Below are positions 21,168-30,525 of a stretch of DNA of 32,000 nt, piece after piece. A program made the translations under genes and the position numbers. Source of the DNA: Candidatus Thorarchaeota archaeon (lineage in GTDB: Archaea > Asgardarchaeota > Thorarchaeia > Thorarchaeales > Thorarchaeaceae); assembly GCA_008080745.1 (NCBI GenBank), contig SHMX01000003.1, positions 120,001-152,000 on the forward strand. The letters run 5' to 3'. The stretch's first letter is position 1, and every line of letters begins with the position of its first letter. Under the pieces are notes generated by a model. The model had not been told where the DNA came from. It saw nothing but the letters and a program-made list of their open reading frames with translations, and made no database searches.

Positions 21168-22004
21168 ATGACACGAATGCCGGTAGTAGCTGGAAGATTC
21201 TATGAAGGGACTGAAGAAACTCTAATGCCTAGATTGAAAGATAGTTTTCTGAAAGGAATGGGCCCCGGAGAGCTTCCTGATGGTCCCCCAGGAGAAAAGA
21301 ATGAAATCAAAGCGCTAATCGCACCTCATGCTGGTTATGTTTATTCTGGAATGACAGCAGCTCATGCTTACCTAGAACTATTCAAAGATAAAGTTCCAGA
21401 ACATTTGGTGATATTGGGTCCAAACCATACTGGCATTGGAAAGACTGTAGCGGTATGTGAAGAGGATTGGAAAACTCCCTTGGGATTAGTTTCATATGAT
21501 ACTGAACTCGGTCCAGCAATAATACAAGAAGACAAGTATGCACAATCTGATTGTATAGCACACAATTCTGAACATTCTATTGAGGTACAATTGCCATTCC
21601 TTCAGTACATATACGGAGGATTGAGCTTCGTGCCGATATGTATGGGTACACAGAAGTATGAGATATGTGAATCACTAGGAAAGACATTAGCAAAATTAAG
21701 CGAAGAAATGGAAATAACTATCATCGCGAGTTCTGATTTTACACATTTCGAATCTGCTGAAAGCGCTAAGAAGAAAGATAATCAAGCAATGGAATATCTT
21801 GAGTTTCTTGATGCAAAAGGATTCCTAGATTTTGTTACAAGTCATAAAGTTAGTATATGTGGTGCTGCACCCATCGCTACTGCCACGGTATTTGCAAAAG
21901 AGATGGGCGCTACACGATTCAATCTGCTCAAGTATACAAATTCAGGAGATGTAACCGGAAACAAGAATGACGTTGTGGCTTATGTAGCAGCAGAGTATAT
22001 CTAA
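21168..22004 (+). CDS. MEMO1-family protein (AmmeMemoRadiSam protein B)
   Basis: PVVAGRFY, PHAGYVYSG, GPNHTG, EHSIEVQLPFLQ, SSDFTH, ICG. ATG 21168 (ORF track 21099). Confidence 0.95.
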   Translation: MTRMPVVAGRFYEGTEETLMPRLKDSFLKGMGPGELPDGPPGEKNEIKALIAPHAGYVYSGMTAAHAYLELFKDKVPEHLVILGPNHTGIGKTVAVCEEDWKTPLGLVSYDTELGPAIIQEDKYAQSDCIAHNSEHSIEVQLPFLQYIYGGLSFVPICMGTQKYEICESLGKTLAKLSEEMEITIIASSDFTHFESAESAKKKDNQAMEYLEFLDAKGFLDFVTSHKVSICGAAPIATATVFAKEMGATRFNLLKYTNSGDVTGNKNDVVAYVAAEYI

Positions 22005-23299
22005 TCCGTAATAGACTCTTCTTCAGTTTCACACATACCCTCCAATTGAACATCTCGTGGTAAACCAATCCCACCTGCAAATGCACCAAAGAAGGAGACC
22101 ATGGCAGCTACACCTAAGGCAGATATTGAATCACCGGATGTATCAAACAAATATCCACCTAATAGAGGTCCAACCACATATGCACTATTACTAATAGCTC
22201 CAAATGCACCCATGACACTGCCATAGACACGCTCATCGCAGAGATCTCCAATGAGAGCTTGAATTGTAGGTCCGCGCATTGAAATTGCAAGACCAAGAAT
22301 CATACCTGCTATATAGAAGCCTGTGAGGTTGGAAGCAATCATGAATAGGTATAGAGACACTCCACCCATAGTAGCTCCAGCCACTATTAGCCATTTTCTT
22401 CCAATTCGATCAGATATCTTACCAAATCCAATGTTACCAATTATAGTAATGACTCCAATAACACCGAAGAAACCTCCAATCTCAATAGGCTCGATGCCAA
22501 ATCTCTGGACAGCATCAAGCATGAAAGCGACCTCAAGAATTCCAAAAGCGAACATATTAGCAAACATAGATACAGTCAATGCAAAGTACGCTTTTGGTTG
22601 AGTCTGGAAAACCTCCAATACAGATATTTCACTGGTTAATGATGGTGTTGCCATCCGCTTAACTGATTGGGGTGGTTCCTTAATGAGAATTTGAATGGCA
22701 ATGACAGTCAGTAGAGTACCAATGGCTGCAATTACGAATGGAAGTCTGATGCCGAGAAATTGAGCCAGTACCCCTCCAAGAGTAGGACCAATTACAAATC
22801 CAACCATGTTTCCCGTACTGAGATAACCCATGGCGGTTCCTCTATTCTCGGGTGTGGTCAAATCAGATACAAATGCATTTGCTGCAGGATAGAACCCTGC
22901 AGAGACCGCTCCTTCAAGAGCCCTGGCACCAATCATAACAAAAATGGTATCGGCCATTGCATAAATCAAATTTGCAATTGCAAATCCCACTAATGCACCA
23001 ATTAGAACAGGTTTTCTTCCTATCCTATCTGACATTCCACCCATTGGACCTGCAAGAAAAATTCTTGTTAGAGCGAAAGATGCTGCAAGCACACCCAACT
23101 CGAAAGCTCCAACCCCTAATGCATCAATGTAATATGGAAAGATTGGAGTGACTATGCCGAAACCAATCTGAAGTAAAGCTAGTGAAAAGGCTAGCATTAA
23201 GACCTGACGAATACCACTTGTAGAAAGTGGAATTTCCTCTGATTCAATAGGAGTTTCCGGTGCGAGTGCAGACTCTTCTATTGTATCATCTGGATCCAT
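22001..23299 (-). CDS. MFS transporter (DHA1/TetA-like)
   Basis: About 12 TM; motif A in both halves (GGMSDRIGRKP, GKISDRIGRKW); GFVIGPTLGG motif C. Confidence 0.93.
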   Translation of the reverse strand: MDPDDTIEESALAPETPIESEEIPLSTSGIRQVLMLAFSLALLQIGFGIVTPIFPYYIDALGVGAFELGVLAASFALTRIFLAGPMGGMSDRIGRKPVLIGALVGFAIANLIYAMADTIFVMIGARALEGAVSAGFYPAANAFVSDLTTPENRGTAMGYLSTGNMVGFVIGPTLGGVLAQFLGIRLPFVIAAIGTLLTVIAIQILIKEPPQSVKRMATPSLTSEISVLEVFQTQPKAYFALTVSMFANMFAFGILEVAFMLDAVQRFGIEPIEIGGFFGVIGVITIIGNIGFGKISDRIGRKWLIVAGATMGGVSLYLFMIASNLTGFYIAGMILGLAISMRGPTIQALIGDLCDERVYGSVMGAFGAISNSAYVVGPLLGGYLFDTSGDSISALGVAAMVSFFGAFAGGIGLPRDVQLEGMCETEEESITD

Positions 23300-23360
23300 A
23301 GGTAAAAACGCCTAAGCAATAGCACTACGATTGCTTTTTCAACCTTATCAAAGAGCTCCG

Positions 23361-23882
23361 TTATCGATTTATAATAACCCTGCTTACACCACTGATTTCT
23401 GTGAGATTTTCTATAATAGCGCCTTTCAAAGGTTCATCTGTAATGACCTTCAAACATGGTTCAGGATAGATCTCCATATCTTCAGCAATTACCTGACGTA
23501 TTGGAATACCATATCCTGCAATGGTTGATGTAACTTCGGAAACGATACCAGGATTTTCAGGAGATTTTACATAAATTGTGATAAAACCATGTCCAAGCAC
23601 TTCACTAACCTTTTCAAGTGATGGACCTGCAGGTTCTATTCGTGAGAAAAATTCGAACAGTTTTTTTGCTTCGCTTGTTCCCGAACAGATATCTTCAGTG
23701 GTAGCGCGAACTGTTCTCCTATCAATATCAAGGGCATCAGCAAGGGACTTCAAAGGGATTTTGACGGAACGGCATTGAATTCTTCCCTTACCTGTAATCT
23801 TGAATCCATGACGAATTATTGCCTGAGCCACTTGTAATCTTTGAGGTGAATCCTTGAAGAATTCCGATATCTCTTCCCACAT
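23361..23882 (-). CDS. HTH plus ACT-domain regulator (archaeal COG2150-like)
   Basis: LADALDIDRRTV HTH-like segment; PGIVSEVTSTIAGYGIPIRQ ACT motif. ATG 23882 with GGTGG SD (ORF track 23948). Confidence 0.85.
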   Translation of the reverse strand: MWEEISEFFKDSPQRLQVAQAIIRHGFKITGKGRIQCRSVKIPLKSLADALDIDRRTVRATTEDICSGTSEAKKLFEFFSRIEPAGPSLEKVSEVLGHGFITIYVKSPENPGIVSEVTSTIAGYGIPIRQVIAEDMEIYPEPCLKVITDEPLKGAIIENLTEISGVSRVIINR

Positions 23883-23971
23883 TATAAATACGCCACCTAA
23901 TTTGAGGATATTTCCATATAGTTGTTCTCCAATATCAACTTTCGGCAAAAAAGAAAATGTTTGAATTATAT

Positions 23972-24502
23972 CTAAACGAGTAGTTTCTCCATTAATACCT
24001 CGTCAATAAATCCGTGATCCATATTGAAATGATCCTTTCGAACCCCCACTGTCCGGTAACCTACAGATTCGTACAGTGCTCTTGCAACCTCATTGTCGTG
24101 AAATGTGCTCAGAATTATCTTGAAGTAACCAATTTGTTTTGCCGCAAATTCTGATGAAACCATAAGTCCGTGACCAACGCCAATATGTCTGAATTCCTTC
24201 ACTACGATTATTCCTAATTTTGCAACATGCTTTGATGCCATCCATTCTTCAGGTTGTAAGGTGAGATGACCTGCATATTCCCCATCCACCTCTGCAATCA
24301 TCAGTATATCTCGTGTACGATAGGTCCTTTGAATCCAGTTAACCCAATCAGCCACTGTTGCGTTAACATGAAATGTTGGAAGCCATTTACCTTCTTCAAC
24401 GACTGCACCAAAACCGTCATAGAGATTTTTTGCGTCCTCGGGTTTAGCATGGCGAACTAATACCGTCCGTCCATCCTTTAGCGAATGTTCCCAAGAACTC
24501 AA
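23972..24502 (-). CDS. GNAT-family N-acetyltransferase
   Basis: LKDGRTVLVRHAKPEDA, LGIIVVKEFRHIGVG motif A, NEVARALYESVGY. Likely TTG 24502 with GAGG SD (ORF track 24577). Confidence 0.88.
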   Translation of the reverse strand: MSSWEHSLKDGRTVLVRHAKPEDAKNLYDGFGAVVEEGKWLPTFHVNATVADWVNWIQRTYRTRDILMIAEVDGEYAGHLTLQPEEWMASKHVAKLGIIVVKEFRHIGVGHGLMVSSEFAAKQIGYFKIILSTFHDNEVARALYESVGYRTVGVRKDHFNMDHGFIDEVLMEKLLV

Positions 24503-24563
24503 TATCTTAACCTCAAAGTGTGAGTCAATGTTCCTAGAAAAAGCGTTGTGGTGTGTAACATTC

Positions 24564-25388
24564 TTATTTGGGGTCAATCAGAGGCAAATCTATTCTGAGT
24601 CCTGGTCGAGGCAGAGAACAGGTATACACTCGATCAAGCTCGACAAATCCCAACTTTGAGTCAATTTCTCGAAATGTTCCTTTGACTTGGAAAACGGCAG
24701 GCTCCAGAGTGACCAAAGAGATAGCTACCCGGAAACCATCTTGAATAATCAGACCTCTTTTTCTTTCTTGATTTCGTATAATTGTAAGGCGATTTTTTGA
24801 AGCAGGATACACACCAAATTCCGGAAATAAACGGGGGTATCCATCAGACCCTATATAGGATATGACCTTCACTGAGTCAACTCGAGTAAACCGTTCATAG
24901 ACATTTAATGGCATATTTCCTTCTTTACTCTTCTTTCGTGGAATTTTCCGTGCAGATAGTCTTGCTCTCAGGTAAGAGGTCAATACTGATAGTTTGGAGA
25001 TTCGATAATTTTCAGAAACTTCTGTTGGTATGGCTGTGCCAGCCATTCGTGCATTTGTATATTGGCTATACCTGAATAGAGGAGTCATGGCAATGAATTC
25101 GTATACTTCATCATTCTTGTGAAATTCGCTAAAATCTGCTTGAATCATCCAATTGTCCAAGTCAGTTGTCATAATAAGTAGCCCTAGTTCGTGATTACCA
25201 TCTTCCAGGTTTCGCTTTGTCTTTTGGGTAAGGAAGTCACCATAGACCAAACGCTTTTCATCATATCGTGTCCAAGTCGTCACAAATGCAACATTTGGTT
25301 CGTTATCATTGGACTTGGTAGCCATAAACTTGGGTGTTTCCAATATCCCTAATGTTTCATCTAGTTTTCGAGGGAATCTATCTACCAC
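24564..25388 (-). CDS. Tandem pyridoxamine-5'-phosphate-oxidase-like (flavin split-barrel) protein
   Basis: Two halves with family-like motifs: KFMATKSNDNEPNVAF...TQKTKRNLEDGN, and KVISYIGSDGYPRLF...FQVKGTF. Likely GTG 25388 with GAGGTG SD, overlapping the activase stop (ORF track 25427). Confidence 0.7.
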   Translation of the reverse strand: MVDRFPRKLDETLGILETPKFMATKSNDNEPNVAFVTTWTRYDEKRLVYGDFLTQKTKRNLEDGNHELGLLIMTTDLDNWMIQADFSEFHKNDEVYEFIAMTPLFRYSQYTNARMAGTAIPTEVSENYRISKLSVLTSYLRARLSARKIPRKKSKEGNMPLNVYERFTRVDSVKVISYIGSDGYPRLFPEFGVYPASKNRLTIIRNQERKRGLIIQDGFRVAISLVTLEPAVFQVKGTFREIDSKLGFVELDRVYTCSLPRPGLRIDLPLIDPK

Positions 25389-26349
25389 AGGTTTCCACCT
25401 CAGTTCTAATTTTTTTAGGTGTATCATTTTGTGTCATTCCGGACCAGACCACATTCTGAAGGCCTACATCTTTTGCGATTGACACGAAACGCTCCATTTC
25501 TTGAGTAGTGATAAGATCGCCATCACTAAGGACAAAGTCAAGACCTAGGACATCATATTTTTCTATGCACATTCGATTGAACGCTAACAGATCAAATCGC
25601 TCAACATTGTTGAGATTATCAAGGATGAAAGAGGCAATTGACTCAATATTATCATCGGTATCGGTATAACCAGGAATAACCGGAGTGCGAATCCACATGG
25701 GAACATTTTCAGATGCAATCAGCCGAGCATTTTCCAGTATTCTTTCCAAATTTCCTCCAGTATATTCACGATGCTTTTCTTCATCCATCACTTTCAAATC
25801 AAATAGTACCAAATCAATATGAGGGAGGATTCGTTCTAACACATCAGAAGAATAATACCCACAAGTGTCTAATGCCACATGAATGCCACAATTCTGCAAC
25901 GAAGATGCCAGACTAATACTAAAATCGGCTTGAAAGAGTGCCTCACCTCCAGAAAGAGTAACTCCACCATTTGATGTTTCAAAGAATACTTGGTCTTTGC
26001 TAAGCTCTTTCACTAGATTCTGTACAGACCATCGTTCGCCAAAAAATCTCAATGCAGTCGTAGGGCAGATATCAACACAAGTTCCACAAATCTTACATTT
26101 CTCTTTTGATATCTCCATCCCATTTGGAGAGAGCGTGAGTGCCCGTTCTGGACACTTCTCGATACAGGCTTTATCACCAATACATTTCTGTTCATACCAC
26201 ACTAGTTGTATTTCTTTTGGGATGGTTTCTGGATTTTGGCACCAGATACAGCTTAGTGGACACCCCTTCAGAAATGCGGTGGTTCTAATCCCAGGACCAT
26301 CCTCTGTTGAAAATCTTTGGATATTAGTGACAATTCCTGTTAGTGTCAT
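25378..26349 (-). CDS. Glycyl-radical enzyme activating enzyme (radical SAM) with ferredoxin-like insert
   Basis: IQRFSTEDGPGIRTTAFLKGCPLSCIWCQNPE (CxxxCxxC), two ferredoxin-type motifs, GGVTLSGGE, DTCG, RTPVIPG. Confidence 0.96.
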   Translation of the reverse strand: MTLTGIVTNIQRFSTEDGPGIRTTAFLKGCPLSCIWCQNPETIPKEIQLVWYEQKCIGDKACIEKCPERALTLSPNGMEISKEKCKICGTCVDICPTTALRFFGERWSVQNLVKELSKDQVFFETSNGGVTLSGGEALFQADFSISLASSLQNCGIHVALDTCGYYSSDVLERILPHIDLVLFDLKVMDEEKHREYTGGNLERILENARLIASENVPMWIRTPVIPGYTDTDDNIESIASFILDNLNNVERFDLLAFNRMCIEKYDVLGLDFVLSDGDLITTQEMERFVSIAKDVGLQNVVWSGMTQNDTPKKIRTEVETCGR

Positions 26350-28745
26350 TATAGGTTATGCTCCGTCCTTGCAATAATTTCCTCTTGAAGCTCTCTACCA
26401 ATTTGTGTAAAGAATGCATTATATCCTGTGACTCGAACGAGTAGGTTTGAGTAATTGTCCGGATTTCTCTGAGCATCCCTAAGTGTTTCAGTATCAATGA
26501 CATTTACCTGTAACGCGGTTCCTCCAATTTCATTGTACGCACGGATTAAGGCTGCTAATTTCTCAATATGTTCAGGGCTTCGTACCATAGAAGGACTCAA
26601 TGTGATAGTATGAGATGCACCATTTGGAACAGTTTCCAATCCTAATTTTCCGACAGATTTTATTGATGCAGTAGGTCCCTCCGAGTCCATACCTTGAACT
26701 GCCCCCACACCACCTGACAAAAATTCACCTCTTCGTCTGCCGTCAGGCGTGGAAGCTGTAAGCGGAGCTAATGGAATATAATAATTCCAACTGAGATATC
26801 CAGCTCGGTAATGGCGACCCGTAAAGGGGTTCTCATGTTTAAAGACTTCTTTAGCCCAGTACATAGAAAGATCCCTTGCAATTGTATCTACATAGTCATC
26901 ATCATTACCAAATTTTGGAGTCTTGTTTTTGAGTAATTGACGAATTTCTTCATATCCAACGAAATCCGATCTAAGAGCCAGAAGTAGCTCATTCATGGTA
27001 ATTCGTTTTTCATCAAAGACCATTTTCTTTACTGCTGCTACAGAATCAGCGAGTGTAGCAATCCCCATTCCTTCCATCGTGTTGAAGTTATAATCAGTAC
27101 CGCCCTCATTGACATCTTTTCCTCTTTGGGCACACCCATCCATCAGAGCGCTTAGATATGGAGTTGGTTGATATTTTGCACGTAGAGTATCAGCCGCATT
27201 TCCAGCATCTACTAATAGTTCAACAAGTACCCTCAACTGTGTTTTGACAGCAGCAACAAATTCATCATAATTACGAAATTCTAGGGGGTTTCCCGTTTTC
27301 GCTCCAATTTGCTCCCCAGTCAGCATATCTTTACCATCATTGAGGGTAAATTCAATGGCTTTTACCAAATTAATATTCACATCTACTGTATCAGACCTAT
27401 CATTCCCCTGCATAGTATTTTCAAGACATCCTACAATACCATAATCCCAGGCATCTTCTCGAGGCACTCCCTGCCAAACCAAACCTTCTATGCTATGCTC
27501 ATCAAAATTTAGGAGAAATGGAGACCCCTGTGCTTGAGCTATCATCTCCGAAACTCGCAATAAGAAATCTTGAGGGGTGTTCCTGTGAATACGAATGTTA
27601 GGTTTTGGCTCTAAGAGGTTCATTTCTTCAATTACTTCAAGTGCTAACCACGTGAGTTCATTGGTTAAATCCTCTCCATCGGATCCACAACCACTTAAGG
27701 TAATCAATTGTCCAAAACTAGAATTAATTCCTTGATTGATTCCAATACTGCCTTGGAAATCATAGACGTAGTTATGTTTGATCCAATAACAATGAAGGAG
27801 CTCCTTAGCAAATTCTCGTGTAATTTCTCCAGACTCGATATCCTTCTTATAAAATGGATAGAGGTACTGATCCCAACGTCCAGGTGATAGTCCAGCACCA
27901 GGGTAGGATTCCTCAGCCATGACAAGCATATGAATCATCCAGAGAGCTTGAAGGGCTTCCCAAAATGTATCCGGAGGATTCCATGGGACATGCATACAGA
28001 TTTCTGCAATTTTCTCTAGTTCCAATCTTCTAGTGGAATCCTCTTCCTCTTTGGCAATTGATTTAGCTTTCTCAGCATAGCGTTTGCTTACAAGATTAGC
28101 AGTCTTAAGACTAATAATTAGAGATTCTATAAATTCGATATGGCTAGAATCGTGAGTCTGATTAAGTAGTGATTCATACTCCTCAACTATACCTTTCAGT
28201 CCAATTTGTAATACTTTAGCATAGTTTGGAATCAAATGACCAGGAACACAAGCAGCAGTTCCAACACCAGTTTCATTCAAATGGCTAGCCGCGTCAAACC
28301 ACTTCTTCATCTCTTTGTTACGACGTTTAGTTTCAGATTTTGTCAAACATCGAGAAAGTGCAGTATTAAAATTGAAACCAATAATTAATTCTCCTTCAAT
28401 TATTTCAACTGGCATATACTTGGTCATGACCTCTTGAAAGAAAATTGCACGGCGCAGCGGTAATGAATGCTTCCAGAAATCAGAGGGAAGGTGTACTCTA
28501 ACCGCCATACCTTTGAGAGTCTGATCGATAGAGGGGAGAAATTGGTATAAAGCTGGCTCGTTAGCCCAATCATGATAGGTGTAAACTTCATCCCAGGGAG
28601 TTCCGGTAGTAAAAGAATATGGTTCATTGGTAAGGTCTCGGTCATGAAACGAGTAGAAATGCTCTCGGAGCTTACTTACACGTTCAGATAGATCTTGTGA
28701 GGGCGACCAGATATCAACAGTGGGTTTTTCACGATCTATTGTCAT
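26349..28745 (-). CDS. Glycyl radical enzyme (PFL superfamily), substrate unassigned
   Basis: PGRWDQYLYPFY, Cys loop GIVGCLEN, KTPKFGNDDDYVD, ASTPDGRRRGE, C-terminal LLVRVTGYN glycyl motif. One-base overlap with the activase start. Confidence 0.95.
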   Translation of the reverse strand: MTIDREKPTVDIWSPSQDLSERVSKLREHFYSFHDRDLTNEPYSFTTGTPWDEVYTYHDWANEPALYQFLPSIDQTLKGMAVRVHLPSDFWKHSLPLRRAIFFQEVMTKYMPVEIIEGELIIGFNFNTALSRCLTKSETKRRNKEMKKWFDAASHLNETGVGTAACVPGHLIPNYAKVLQIGLKGIVEEYESLLNQTHDSSHIEFIESLIISLKTANLVSKRYAEKAKSIAKEEEDSTRRLELEKIAEICMHVPWNPPDTFWEALQALWMIHMLVMAEESYPGAGLSPGRWDQYLYPFYKKDIESGEITREFAKELLHCYWIKHNYVYDFQGSIGINQGINSSFGQLITLSGCGSDGEDLTNELTWLALEVIEEMNLLEPKPNIRIHRNTPQDFLLRVSEMIAQAQGSPFLLNFDEHSIEGLVWQGVPREDAWDYGIVGCLENTMQGNDRSDTVDVNINLVKAIEFTLNDGKDMLTGEQIGAKTGNPLEFRNYDEFVAAVKTQLRVLVELLVDAGNAADTLRAKYQPTPYLSALMDGCAQRGKDVNEGGTDYNFNTMEGMGIATLADSVAAVKKMVFDEKRITMNELLLALRSDFVGYEEIRQLLKNKTPKFGNDDDYVDTIARDLSMYWAKEVFKHENPFTGRHYRAGYLSWNYYIPLAPLTASTPDGRRRGEFLSGGVGAVQGMDSEGPTASIKSVGKLGLETVPNGASHTITLSPSMVRSPEHIEKLAALIRAYNEIGGTALQVNVIDTETLRDAQRNPDNYSNLLVRVTGYNAFFTQIGRELQEEIIARTEHNL

Positions 28746-28935
28746 TATCTTTAATCTCCGAGATATTAAGATGAGTATAGAAACTTGGTGAGATATAAGG
28801 AGCCCGAAATAGTATCATTGGGAAAACCTATATCCACAGGTACAAATTTTCATAGGGCGCTAGCTTTAAAAACTCGGTCGGCTCTCGGAGGCCATCCGCC
28901 CGAACACAGGATATTGGGCATCAGGAAGGCTTCAT

Positions 28936-30525
28936 ATGAAGAAACGAAATACTGTGATGATGCTCTTGCTCTTATCAATATTAGTCACAGGAGCAATTCA
29001 GGTCCAATCATTCGCAACAATAGGAAATACACAGGAAAGTGCAGTTGAAACTAGTATTCCAATAATAGTGCCAGCTGCTTACGATTCTGATAACATAACA
29101 ATCGATTTACAAAGTCCAGCAGAGAATTCGGTAGTATCTGGTTCGTTCAATCTTACTCTGAATGTAACTTCAGATAATGGTGACCTGAATTTTACGCTTA
29201 TAGTTGATGGGTCAATTCATCCTGATTTGAACAAGACCTCAATAACTACAGGCCTTCAGAATATCACAGTAGACACTACAGTTCTTAATGAAGGGCTTCT
29301 CAATTTCACGCTCCTCTTTGAAGAGAATCATACAGGAGTTCTTGAGAGAGAGTCACTCACTGCATTCTACGAAGTTGATAATCACGGTGCACCATTGGTG
29401 CAAATTCTTGCTCCAGATACTGAAGATCTGATTACCGGACTCACAGATTTAATGGTCAATATCACTACCGATTACGATGACATCAATGTCACTGTATTCG
29501 TAGATGGAGAGATTTTGGAAGAATACAACAACACGTTGGTTTCTGGTGGAACTGGAAATTATACGATAAATGGTACCGCCTATGAGAATGGTGACCATAA
29601 TGTAACAGTCAAAGCAGTGACTGCAGAAGGATTAACCGACAGCGCCTATCGTATATACACCTTCCTAGATCATGTAAGAATAACCTTCAGAAATCTCGCT
29701 AATTATGAAACCATATCTGGTGAGGCCGTCATCCCTGTGAAAGTATTCACACCATATTCTGATGTTACGGTTTCAGCTTATGTTGATGGTGATTTGATAC
29801 CAGATGTTAGCAACATAACATTACCAGAGGGGAACAGTGAGATTACCCTAGATACAACCCCATACTCAGAAGGAGAGCACAATATCACACTGAAGGCCTA
29901 TGATGGTTTTGGACATGGATGGGAAACCACATTGATTTTAGTTGTGGATAACCATGGTATTCCAAAAATAGAGTTATTATCGCCAGATCAGGATATTGTG
30001 GTTGGTTATGTTGCATTTACTGTGCATATTAATTCTACATGGGATTCAGTAAATCTCTCAGTTTACATCGATAATGAGGTCGTTGAAGGACTGGCAAATA
30101 TATCGATTGACCTTACTGAAAACGACGGGGATTATACATTCTATATCGATACGAGTCTCTATTCCAAATGGGAACATACACTGAAAATTGTAGTTGTAAC
30201 ACCTGAAGAGATTACATCTGAAGAAGAAGGTACCTTTGGGTTTGCAAATATTCGGATTGAAGAAGTTATCAGCTTGGTGGCGCTTCTAGCTATAGCTATT
30301 GCCATTCCCATGTCAAGGAAGAAGAGTGGTCAACCACTACAGCCAATTATTCTAGCAGACGTATTGTTTGTTGCTGTAGTTATGGGATTATTCTTGCTAC
30401 TTGGTGTGACTTCGATTCCAGTGGCAATATGGCACTTTAACCTGGCAAGTGTGTGGGCAGTTGGTTTAACTCTAATTGGCTTAAACTGGGTAATGCCCTT
30501 TATTTCAGGTGAAGTTGAAGAATAA
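28936..30525 (+). CDS. Cell-surface glycoprotein with four Ig-like repeats and a multi-TM C-terminal anchor
   Basis: Signal peptide; four beta-rich repeats ending DT(T/S)xxx(E/N)GxH-like; about 19 N-x-S/T sequons counted by eye; three hydrophobic segments at the C-terminus. Confidence 0.85.
   Translation: MKKRNTVMMLLLLSILVTGAIQVQSFATIGNTQESAVETSIPIIVPAAYDSDNITIDLQSPAENSVVSGSFNLTLNVTSDNGDLNFTLIVDGSIHPDLNKTSITTGLQNITVDTTVLNEGLLNFTLLFEENHTGVLERESLTAFYEVDNHGAPLVQILAPDTEDLITGLTDLMVNITTDYDDINVTVFVDGEILEEYNNTLVSGGTGNYTINGTAYENGDHNVTVKAVTAEGLTDSAYRIYTFLDHVRITFRNLANYETISGEAVIPVKVFTPYSDVTVSAYVDGDLIPDVSNITLPEGNSEITLDTTPYSEGEHNITLKAYDGFGHGWETTLILVVDNHGIPKIELLSPDQDIVVGYVAFTVHINSTWDSVNLSVYIDNEVVEGLANISIDLTENDGDYTFYIDTSLYSKWEHTLKIVVVTPEEITSEEEGTFGFANIRIEEVISLVALLAIAIAIPMSRKKSGQPLQPIILADVLFVAVVMGLFLLLGVTSIPVAIWHFNLASVWAVGLTLIGLNWVMPFISGEVEE

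Follow-up and report, generated by a model that had tools for sequence, protein, structure and literature searches.

A glycyl radical enzyme of an orphan clade in a Thorarchaeota archaeon and its tandem split-barrel partner, a likely accessory subunit

Introduction

Glycerol dehydratase (GD; DhaB1, with its activase DhaB2) from Clostridium butyricum (1R8W/1R9D) and 1,2-propanediol dehydratase (PD; 5I2A) are the nearest described relatives of the glycyl radical enzyme (GRE) analysed here, which matches GD with 462 bits over residues 169-796. Both dehydratases resemble it in length class, in the Cys-x-Glu loop and in the RVxGY glycyl loop, and share with it an activase that carries a ferredoxin-like insert. 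To our knowledge, no third protein is associated with either GD or PD. The trans-4-hydroxy-L-proline dehydratase HypD (6VXC; model NF043068) has the same eliminase loop, and its counterpart in the present genome is probably served by the same activase.

Benzylsuccinate synthase, with its beta and gamma subunits, and 4-hydroxyphenylacetate decarboxylase, with its gamma subunit, provide a second parallel, as there too the GRE is always inherited with an extra protein that is not an activase; for the present pair, binding is predicted. The extra subunits of these two enzymes are small Fe-S proteins, whereas the partner described below, the split-barrel protein (SB, 274 aa), consists of two split barrels in tandem and has no Cys clusters, and their catalytic subunits are distant from the present GRE (203-215 bits).

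The two halves of SB superpose on HupZ (5ESC), Swol_0183 (3IN6), Ldb0262 (2HTD), the FMN-binding protein of D. vulgaris and the F420 reductase MSMEG_3380, with TM by target of 0.72-0.83, and the SB family profile matches HupZ at E 2e-11 and 3IN6 at 2e-8. PNPOx-like FMN-binding proteins of this kind are single barrels of 120-165 aa and act as homodimers. SB, in contrast, consists of two diverged barrels fused in one chain, and its family is strictly tied to a GRE.

Layout of the locus

The window, which is the whole 32,000-nucleotide stretch analysed (contig SHMX01000003.1, Candidatus Thorarchaeota archaeon), contains the following features.

26349..28745, minus strand: GRE, 798 aa, orphan clade (PF02901, PF01228, clade alignment)
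25378..26349, minus strand: activase (AE), a radical SAM GRE activase of 323 aa with a ferredoxin-like insert (TIGR02494, Cys motifs)
24564..25388, minus strand: SB, tandem split-barrel (PNPOx-like) protein, 274 aa from GTG 25388 (AlphaFold2 model, Foldseek, co-occurrence with GRE)
23972..24502, minus strand: GNAT acetyltransferase, 176 aa from TTG 24502 (PF00583); neighbour only
23361..23882, minus strand: TrpY-family-like regulator, 173 aa from ATG 23882 (NF053754); neighbour only
22001..23299, minus strand: MFS transporter, DHA1/Tet-like (PF07690 at 215 bits); neighbour only
25394..25400, minus strand: Shine-Dalgarno-like GAGGTGG, 5 nt upstream of the SB start, within the end of the AE gene
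28746..28935, no strand: divergent intergenic region between the GRE gene and an Ig-domain gene

The preliminary description of this DNA had reported six consecutive minus-strand genes at 22001-28745, and the list of open reading frames agrees. The GRE and AE genes overlap by 1 nt, as had been stated, in the sequence TAATG, and the overlap of AE and SB, reported as about 11 nt, is 11 nt with the SB start at GTG 25388, a start that gives the same length of 274 aa as the database gene call. The remaining gaps, given earlier as about 60-90 nt, are 61, 89 and 61 nt, because GNAT starts at TTG 24502 and the regulator at ATG 23882, both starts having been set by homologue coverage. The divergent intergenic region contains A/T-rich, TATA-like stretches and, ahead of the ATG of the GRE gene, a GGAG; it is presumed to be the promoter of the cassette.

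The GRE belongs to no characterised clade

The GRE, an enzyme sensitive to oxygen, matches PF02901 with 525 bits and PF01228 with 95 bits, yet it falls under every curated NCBIfam equivalog cut-off, including those of TIGR01774 (552 bits; cut-off 678) and of the HypD model, its second-best family model (517 bits; cut-off 1100). Members of its own clade score 887-1465 bits against the 462 bits of GD, its closest relative of solved structure, and the enzyme thus lies outside all characterised clades. The clade is marked by the signatures ESYPGxG, VGCLENT and LLVRVTGYNA. The enzyme has His170, the thiyl loop Cys440-Leu-Glu442 and the radical residue Gly774 in RVTGY, with the two loops encoded as follows.

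27420..27431, minus strand: codons G439-C440-L441-E442, the Cys loop (family signature VGCLENT; translation)
26421..26435, minus strand: codons R771-V-T-G774-Y775, the glycyl radical loop (translation, clade alignment)

Across the 45 sequences of the clade alignment C440 and E442 are invariant, and the Cys-loop motif is kept in eight distant clade members. The N-terminal ~165 aa have no match among Pfam or PDB GREs and are unrelated in sequence to GD and PD, yet this part is conserved among clade members from residue 8-12 onward.

Alignment with GD pairs its His164 with H170 and its Cys433/Glu435 with C440/E442. Because the enzyme keeps three residues of the dehydratase/lyase class, namely Cys440 for the thiyl radical, Glu442 as the base and His170, it most likely catalyses a radical 1,2-elimination or a ketyl-radical reaction of related kind, a class assignment based on these three conserved residues. 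Conversely, H281/S282, Y339, D447 and Y640 of GD are replaced by A284/G285, G345, V454 and L651, and the invariant ESYPG loop contains a two-residue 'YP' insertion relative to GD. Since Gly and Ala stand where GD has bulky pocket residues, the comparison points to a hydroxylated compound bigger than glycerol as the substrate. Acyl-CoA genes recur near some bacterial copies of the GRE, a surrounding compatible with more than one chemistry.

The activase is probably shared with a second GRE

AE scores 326 bits against TIGR02494 (cut-off 174) and carries the CxxxCxxC motif at C30/C34/C37 together with two ferredoxin-type Cys motifs. It would place the glycyl radical on the GRE. The 98%-complete genome encodes one GRE activase above cut-off and two GREs; the second, on another contig, scores 1204 bits against the HypD-model cut-off of 1100, is 39% identical to the window GRE over residues 148-794, and has no AE gene adjoining it. 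Given one activase for two GREs, with none beside the HypD-level gene, AE is probably common to both enzymes.

GRE, AE and SB recur as a trio

The trio is found again in Thorarchaeia, in Jordarchaeales and in many bacterial phyla, in unrelated surroundings. In a species-representative collection with one genome per species, the clade GRE is encoded in at least 578 stretches from many phyla. Where the contig continues for at least 2 kb beyond the GRE, SB lies downstream on the same strand in about nine-tenths of the loci. Where it is not adjacent, SB was found elsewhere in the same genome for five loci, in three of them after an AE. SB also follows GRE-AE in Jordarchaeales and other archaeal contigs, and distant relatives (24-31% identity) follow the pair in all four bacterial-looking contigs, amid unrelated flanks.

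Among 87 Thorarchaeia genomes, 48 have both GRE and SB and 34 have neither, the five discordant cases being contig ends or a fragment. AE is often kept alone where GRE and SB are absent, and the AE-only genomes also carry HypD-level genes. In the AE tree, the AE-only states of the syntenic locus fall within the AEs of trios, and parsimony gives four changes, at least two of which are forced by supported branches. Co-occurrence and the recurring trio thus bear out the earlier view of the split-barrel gene as a real, conserved partner of the GRE.

SB is predicted to dock onto the GRE

SB was first described as a double flavin barrel. The window protein has no Pfam match of its own, while 48 of the 63 family members match PF01243 (PNPOx_N). 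In its AlphaFold2 model (pLDDT 90.2) both halves resemble PNPOx-like split barrels (Foldseek probability 1.0, TM by target 0.75-0.83), and the halves are related to each other by hhalign (98.9%, E 3e-17), a relation that BLASTP between them does not detect. Tandem split barrels are therefore upheld, and the flavin part of the description is putative: SB may carry a flavin-type cofactor. Comparison of the half profiles shows a C-terminal barrel without the KTxxNL-type motif, which is conserved in less than 75% across the family.

For a model of its complex with SB, the GRE was truncated at residue 726 and so lacked its glycyl radical domain. The model reached an ipSAE, which is the model's confidence and no measurement, of 0.85 (median of three runs), against 0.00 for the best of three controls. 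Of 80 solved complexes, 58 reach the mark applied to this score, as do 2 of 110 mismatched pairs, counts that are only rough here given the use of our own alignments. The runs have at least 79% of contacts in common, with a partner pLDDT of at least 87. In this truncated model, SB docks onto loops next to the active site and onto the N-terminal segment of the GRE, where the core of the predicted interface lies.

28491..28625, minus strand: GRE residues 41-85, clade-specific N-terminal segment, core of the predicted SB interface (complex model)

GRE contacts at 281-282, 654-661 and 673 could reflect the domain missing from the model. Interface residues of SB are conserved above the rest of the protein (0.50 vs 0.39, p = 0.0015), and those of the GRE are not more conserved than its remainder (0.66 vs 0.69). 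The PDB holds no solved complex of this kind, the nearest relatives of SB there being the single-barrel HupZ and FMN-binding proteins. Most likely, SB is an accessory subunit specific to this GRE.

Alternative roles for SB

SB could instead be a soluble enzyme of the pathway, such as a reductase or isomerase that depends on FMN or F420, which would act on the substrate or product of the GRE and not bind the GRE stably. Strict co-inheritance would suit a two-enzyme pathway equally well, F420 and FMN reductases occur within the fold family, and the PNPOx_N matches of family members point the same way. Against it stands the contrast in complex scores noted above. In addition, FRYNAY and PPxPG, the motifs of SB with the highest conservation, sit at the predicted GRE interface and not where a cofactor or substrate site could be recognised. 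This alternative is considered unlikely.

Somewhat less probable again is that SB serves AE as its dedicated donor of low-potential electrons, a single-chain flavoprotein replacing flavodoxin in a self-sufficient cassette of enzyme, activator and reductant. The SB gene is translationally coupled to AE, with its own Shine-Dalgarno-like sequence and a start that overlaps the AE stop, the same coupling is seen in Jordarchaeales (1 nt) and in the Thorarchaeia genus g10 (4 nt), the AE-SB pair stands away from the GRE in three genomes, and FMN-binding proteins are among the structural relatives. Yet Thorarchaeia retain AE without SB wherever the orphan GRE has been lost, in genomes that still have other GREs, and AE therefore works without SB. 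Furthermore, the genome encodes stand-alone flavodoxin-domain proteins, and in the complex model it is the GRE that SB docks onto, with strong contacts through conserved motifs.

The distal genes form a separate module

The preliminary description had also proposed that all six genes might serve one new pathway for an amine or amino-acid substrate, with roles in transport (uptake or export), in acetylation, in sensing and in radical cleavage. A single strand, gaps of 61-89 nt and a gene order conserved in about 25 Thorarchaeia genomes are in keeping with one operon, but the order of hisS and Memo is equally conserved. GNAT, regulator and MFS adjoin hisS and Memo also in Thorarchaeia genomes without the GRE, staying in place where both GRE and SB are missing, and they are not beside the trio in Jordarchaeales, in genus g10, in a further Thorarchaeia genome (G074) or in the bacterial loci examined. 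Moreover, a T4CT6 tract and a TATA-like sequence lie between GNAT and the regulator, upstream of the latter. The single-pathway proposal, with its hint at the substrate, is thus largely refuted, and its own caveat, that the distal three might be no more than neighbours, was the correct reading; their conservation beside the GRE is real within one archaeal family, as inherited synteny only.

GNAT, regulator and MFS transporter are a separate, vertically inherited neighbour module, for which acetylation and efflux of amino-acid analogues is a plausible role. GNAT matches an ArsN1a-type model weakly (74 bits; cut-off 170). The regulator, initially called an ACT regulator, is of TrpY-like type (NF053754, 157 bits, below the cut-off of 180), with faint Pfam ACT and HTH matches (E 0.03-0.2); it occurs as a single copy in 73 of the 87 Thorarchaeia genomes, both with and without the GRE.

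An identity of the GRE as alkyl- or benzylsuccinate synthase, a label given to single-Cys, PFL2-type GREs of Asgard archaea (PMC8163825), is very improbable, and so is that of a pyruvate formate-lyase, as names including 'formate C-acetyltransferase' in several databases would have it. Genes for acyl-CoA dehydrogenase, enoyl-CoA hydratase and AMP-ligase that recur beside part of the bacterial copies might suggest such a role. However, benzylsuccinate synthase and MasD score 203 and 263 bits against 462 for GD, the eliminase Cys-x-Glu loop is invariant in the clade, and no small Fe-S subunit genes are among the window ORFs listed beside the GRE. The Cys-Cys pair of pyruvate formate-lyase is absent (G439-C440; TIGR01255 125 vs 994).

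Conclusion

The preferred reading, to which we give a probability of roughly 0.55, is that GRE, AE and SB, and not the six-gene block, constitute the functional unit, with SB as an accessory subunit of the GRE and the distal genes separate. GRE-AE-SB is a widespread but unstudied set.

Organization and host of the locus

The genes that enter the argument are as follows:

26349-28745, minus strand: glycyl radical enzyme (GRE), 798 aa
25378-26349, minus strand: activase of the GRE (AE)
24564-25388, minus strand: tandem split-barrel protein (SB), 274 aa
22001-24502, minus strand: GNAT, TrpY-family-like regulator and MFS transporter genes (the distal genes)
28936-30525, plus strand: divergent Ig-domain protein, 529 aa
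7528-10023, plus strand: 831-aa protein

The preliminary description had placed six consecutive minus-strand genes at 22001-28745, and the open reading frames together with homologue-supported starts confirm both this arrangement and its overlaps and gaps. The GRE stop and the AE start have one base in common (TAATG), and SB starts from a GTG at 25388, 11 nt ahead of the AE stop and with a GAGGTGG site upstream. The supported starts of GNAT (TTG, 24502) and of the regulator (ATG, 23882) leave remaining gaps of 61, 89 and 61 nt. The locus is real and intact.

The archaeal origin of the window shows in genes for a thermosome subunit and for a subunit K domain of RNA polymerase, and its proteins have their nearest relatives under the labels Thorarchaeota, Hermodarchaeota and Jordarchaeales. 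The host genome measures 3.16 Mb, is 98% complete and carries the window on contig C3; within the window there is no tRNA and no match to an Rfam family. The stretch occurs in just two DNA sequencing runs, both from a single marine-sediment study and possibly its source, and no RNA run is listed. The 831-aa protein matches BREX PglX-type and MADS MAD2-type DNA methyltransferases weakly (E 1e-11 to 2e-15, far under the cut-offs), and may be a defence-related methyltransferase. The position of the Ig-domain protein is conserved in Thorarchaeia (homologues in loci L034-L048); in genus g11, two or three overlapping matches to it occur in that region, which may be internal repeats or a diverged extra copy.

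An orphan glycyl radical enzyme of probable eliminase type

With 524.9 bits against PF02901 (cut-off 24.3) and 95.4 bits against PF01228 (cut-off 22.2), the GRE belongs to the glycyl radical superfamily, and its glycyl (RVTG774Y) and thiyl (GC440LE) loops are both invariant among 45 clade members. Placement by NCBIfam cut-offs and PDB scores leaves it below every curated NCBIfam cut-off, from the best equivalog, trans-4-hydroxy-L-proline dehydratase (HypD, 517 against 1100), through HpsG (482 against 1000), CutC (428 against 1050), HpfG (422 against 1000) and the PflD type (419 against 1109), to the broad PFL2/glycerol-dehydratase subfamily model TIGR01774 (552 against 678). The top match among solved structures is the B12-independent glycerol dehydratase (GD, 1R9D), at 462 bits in an alignment that begins at residue 169; the N-terminal 165 residues match no GRE outside the clade. 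Within it, identity amounts to 72-78% over the full length for Thorarchaeia orthologues, 60% for Jordarchaeales copies and 44-54% for bacterial copies, the last with the N-terminal 165 residues included. The signatures ESYPGxG, NQGIxSxFGQL, VGCLENT, YLSWNY and LLVRVTGYNA are invariant and clade-specific. Database names for the clade proteins conflict: 'formate C-acetyltransferase', 'pyruvate formate lyase family' and 'hypothetical' are all in use.

The C-x-E motif of the GRE 1,2-eliminases (GD, PD, CutC, HypD, IslA, HpsG) is present, C440-L-E442 aligning with C433-V-E435 of GD, and with H170 (GD H164) these residues preserve the eliminase-class catalytic triad. The GD substrate pocket, made up of H164, H281, S282, Y339, D447 and Y640, is not preserved: of the six residues only H164 is retained, and in the phmmer alignment the others are replaced in turn by A284, G285, G345, V454 and L651. 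Because the triad is kept while the pocket residues are replaced, the sequence suggests eliminase-type chemistry on a different hydroxylated substrate, probably one larger than that of GD.

Single-Cys PFL2-type GREs of Hermod- and Thorarchaeota have previously been read as alkyl/benzylsuccinate synthases, at 29-33% identity (PMC8163825). For the present clade this reading is disfavoured by the C-x-E loop, by the closer similarity to dehydratases (203 bits for BSS and 263 for MasD versus 462 for GD), and by the lack of small-subunit genes, as the neighbours are AE and SB and no small Fe-S subunit gene lies beside the GRE in the window; on this basis the X-succinate synthases (Bss/Ass/Mas) were judged improbable. 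Pyruvate formate-lyase was likewise judged improbable, as there is no adjacent Cys-Cys pair (G439-C440 only) and TIGR01255 scores 125 against a cut-off of 994.

A tandem split-barrel protein encoded with the enzyme

The SB copy in the window has no Pfam match, PF01243 included, a family that 48 of 63 SB family members match at E <= 0.01. In an AlphaFold2 model built with 26 homologues (pLDDT 90.2, pTM 0.88), both halves fit onto PNPOx-like FMN-binding split barrels, onto HupZ and onto an F420 reductase (Foldseek probability 1.0, TM by target 0.75-0.83). Profile comparison shows the halves to be homologous (hhalign 98.9%); BLASTP between them finds no similarity. The N-terminal barrel of this copy has a KTxxNL-like motif, whose conservation across the family is below 75%. 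PilZ-type proteins, the sole two-domain structural matches, were rejected as relatives at an rmsd of 14-19 Å. Of the 'double flavin barrel' proposed in the preliminary description, the double split barrel is thus borne out by the superposition of each half, the homology of the halves and PF01243 in the family, whereas the flavin remains presumptive.

Among 1.84 billion cluster representatives, a profile search returned 407 SB relatives, and in all four of those looked up SB directly follows a GRE-AE pair, with unrelated, bacterial-type flanks. Scanning one genome per prokaryote species with the GRE alignment matched at least 600 stretches, of which at least 578 of those listed encode a clade GRE; among the matches listed, the hosts are Chloroflexota, Actinomycetota, Desulfobacterota, Hydrogenedentota, Nitrospirota, Bacillota, Planctomycetota, Spirochaetota and archaea. 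SB lies downstream on the same strand in about nine tenths of the fetched loci with enough contig past the GRE. For five loci without an adjacent SB, it was found elsewhere in the same genome, behind an AE in three of them. Among the papers searched, none has 'glycyl radical enzyme' together with 'split barrel'.

Beyond the trio the neighbours vary, each extra family occurring in at most 15 of 88 loci; the commonest are a generic ABC ATPase (15), acyl-CoA dehydrogenase (10), AMP-ligase (7), TPP enzyme (6), B12-radical SAM (6), aldehyde:ferredoxin oxidoreductase (AOR, 4) and enoyl-CoA hydratase (4). Since these families are mostly limited to few lineages, they were judged too weak for assigning a substrate.

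Several individual contexts may be recorded. An acyl-CoA dehydrogenase gene lies between GRE and AE in two Dehalococcoidia loci (L092:10374-11681 and L100:3720-5027), and such genes lie directly up- or downstream of the trio in Geothermincolia-type Actinomycetota. In Jordarchaeales (L063-L065) a gene for a 679-aa type-B carboxylesterase comes after the trio, with HcyBio, SBF-family and TauE-family transporter genes and a PIN/RHH toxin-antitoxin pair nearby. In the Thorarchaeia genome G074 (locus L033, G074:C7:48500-61500), the trio lies away from the GNAT/regulator locus, flanked on one side by a divergent aldehyde:ferredoxin oxidoreductase gene and on the other by genes for a 662-aa membrane-like protein, an alpha/beta hydrolase and a glycerophosphodiester phosphodiesterase, possibly a lipid-headgroup or aldehyde context. 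The 662-aa gene is unrelated to the Jordarchaeales carboxylesterase, so that the two contexts have no extra gene in common.

A predicted complex between GRE and SB

GRE residues 1-726 (45-row alignment), cut for a 1000-residue limit, were modelled together with SB (63-row alignment). The model scored 0.85 and the best of three controls 0.00; 58 of 80 solved complexes attain this mark, as do 2 of 110 mismatched pairs, counts that are only a rough guide here, as our own alignments were supplied. Three runs had at least 79% of contacts in common, with a partner pLDDT of at least 87. No like complex was found among solved structures, so that recall of a known structure is an unlikely source of the score.

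In the contacts with the lowest error, GRE 41-44 and 63-85, within the clade-specific N-terminus, meet SB 160-166 and 256-262. The interface also takes in an invariant, clade-specific 'YP' insertion (281-282) and the GRE loops 330-336 and 654-661, which adjoin the substrate pocket by alignment to GD; with the glycyl radical domain absent from the model, contacts near the barrel interior are possibly distorted. The most conserved motifs of the SB family, FRYNAY and PPxPG, fall within the predicted interface. The model supports, and does not in itself show, the binding of SB to the GRE.

One activase, and probable repeated loss in Thorarchaeia

AE scores 326 bits against TIGR02494 (cut-off 174), carries CxxxCxxC at C30/C34/C37, and has a ferredoxin-like insert (C56...C66P and C85xxC88xxC91xxxC95P). 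It is the single GRE activase of the source genome, which encodes two GREs. The second (contig C2:525262-527613; locus L001:1495-3861) scores 1204 bits against the HypD model (cut-off 1100) and has no adjoining activase; it is flanked by a 304-aa ORF and by ribosomal protein L3. HypD-level genes occur in 48 of 87 Thorarchaeia genomes, AE-only genomes among them, and in G003, a genome 98% complete, no GRE was matched at the threshold applied and the locus also lacks AE. Together, these observations suggest that AE probably serves both GREs of the genome, and that SB is probably linked with the orphan GRE, not with AE. The alternative that SB is the electron donor of AE is weakened further by the stand-alone flavodoxin-domain genes that the source genome encodes.

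In Thorarchaeia the gene order is orf444-hisS-Memo-MFS-regulator-GNAT-SB-AE-GRE-Ig protein, and the syntenic locus exists in three states, with the trio, with AE only, or with none of the three genes. GRE and SB lie on either side of AE and are jointly present or absent in 82 of the 87 genomes, the five exceptions lying at contig ends or being a 49-aa remnant. The AE tree unites the syntenic Thorarchaeia AEs in a supported clade, in which the AE-only rows are nested among those with the trio; parsimony gives four changes of state, at least two of them forced by supported branches. Given this co-presence and this nesting, GRE and SB have most likely been lost together repeatedly while AE was kept.

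Genus g10 (L053-L055, from G023, G022 and G025; L072, L075, L080) has an AE-only native locus and a second trio elsewhere. With a GRE only 55% identical, and an AE that clusters among those of bacteria and Jordarchaeales, this second trio looks xenologous, as if the original had been lost and another later acquired by transfer. In G005, the sole split-barrel copy is a 49-aa remnant (C30:14753-14899), and a GRE paralogue is broken by two stop codons (C15:146540-148459); both look like decaying copies.

The distal genes are neighbours of the trio

The regulator scores 157.1 bits against the TrpY family model NF053754 (curated cut-off 180, E 3.8e-46), with faint Pfam ACT and HTH matches; by these scores it counts as a homologue that falls short of curated family membership. 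It is single-copy in 73 of the 87 Thorarchaeia genomes. The preliminary description had read the six genes as a candidate pathway for a possibly amine- or amino-acid-derived substrate, with the reservation that the distal genes may be mere neighbours. Conservation of the neighbourhood does hold in Thorarchaeia, where the distal genes are syntenic with the GRE, but the same synteny takes in housekeeping genes and is confined to a single taxonomic family, and therefore says little about function. Moreover, hisS-Memo-(MFS)-regulator-GNAT is still in place in fourteen genomes whose GRE is absent or elsewhere, and the trio stands in other surroundings, without the distal genes, in G074, genus g10 and Jordarchaeales. 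By gene content, then, GNAT, the regulator and MFS are neighbours of the trio, and the six-gene pathway is not supported.

Significance of the GRE-AE-SB trio

The trio is a variant of the GRE system not described before, whose partner protein is probably bound to the enzyme; a partner of the SB type is not known for any studied GRE. A more specific proposal, to which we give roughly one chance in five, is that the clade is a two-subunit GRE type in which a flavin-type SB would cover the loops of the active site and supply the radical chemistry with reducing equivalents or a cofactor. The substrate may then be a larger hydroxylated, lipid- or acid-derived compound, at which genes for aldehyde:ferredoxin oxidoreductase, acyl-CoA enzymes and lipid headgroups close to some copies hint. 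If true, the two-subunit reading would yield a GRE with a net redox reaction, and no characterised PFL2-type GRE is known to perform one.

Some of the most difficult anaerobic reactions are the work of GREs, and each newly assigned clade (CutC, HypD, IslA, HpsG) has revealed a new environmental or gut pathway. A partner that is constantly inherited with the clade GRE and predicted to bind it offers a concrete, testable handle. For Asgard metabolism, a weak support for 'alkane degradation' is removed, and two different radical enzymes probably share a single activase. The clade itself is found in hundreds of uncultured sediment and subsurface species, and also in the archaea nearest to eukaryotes.
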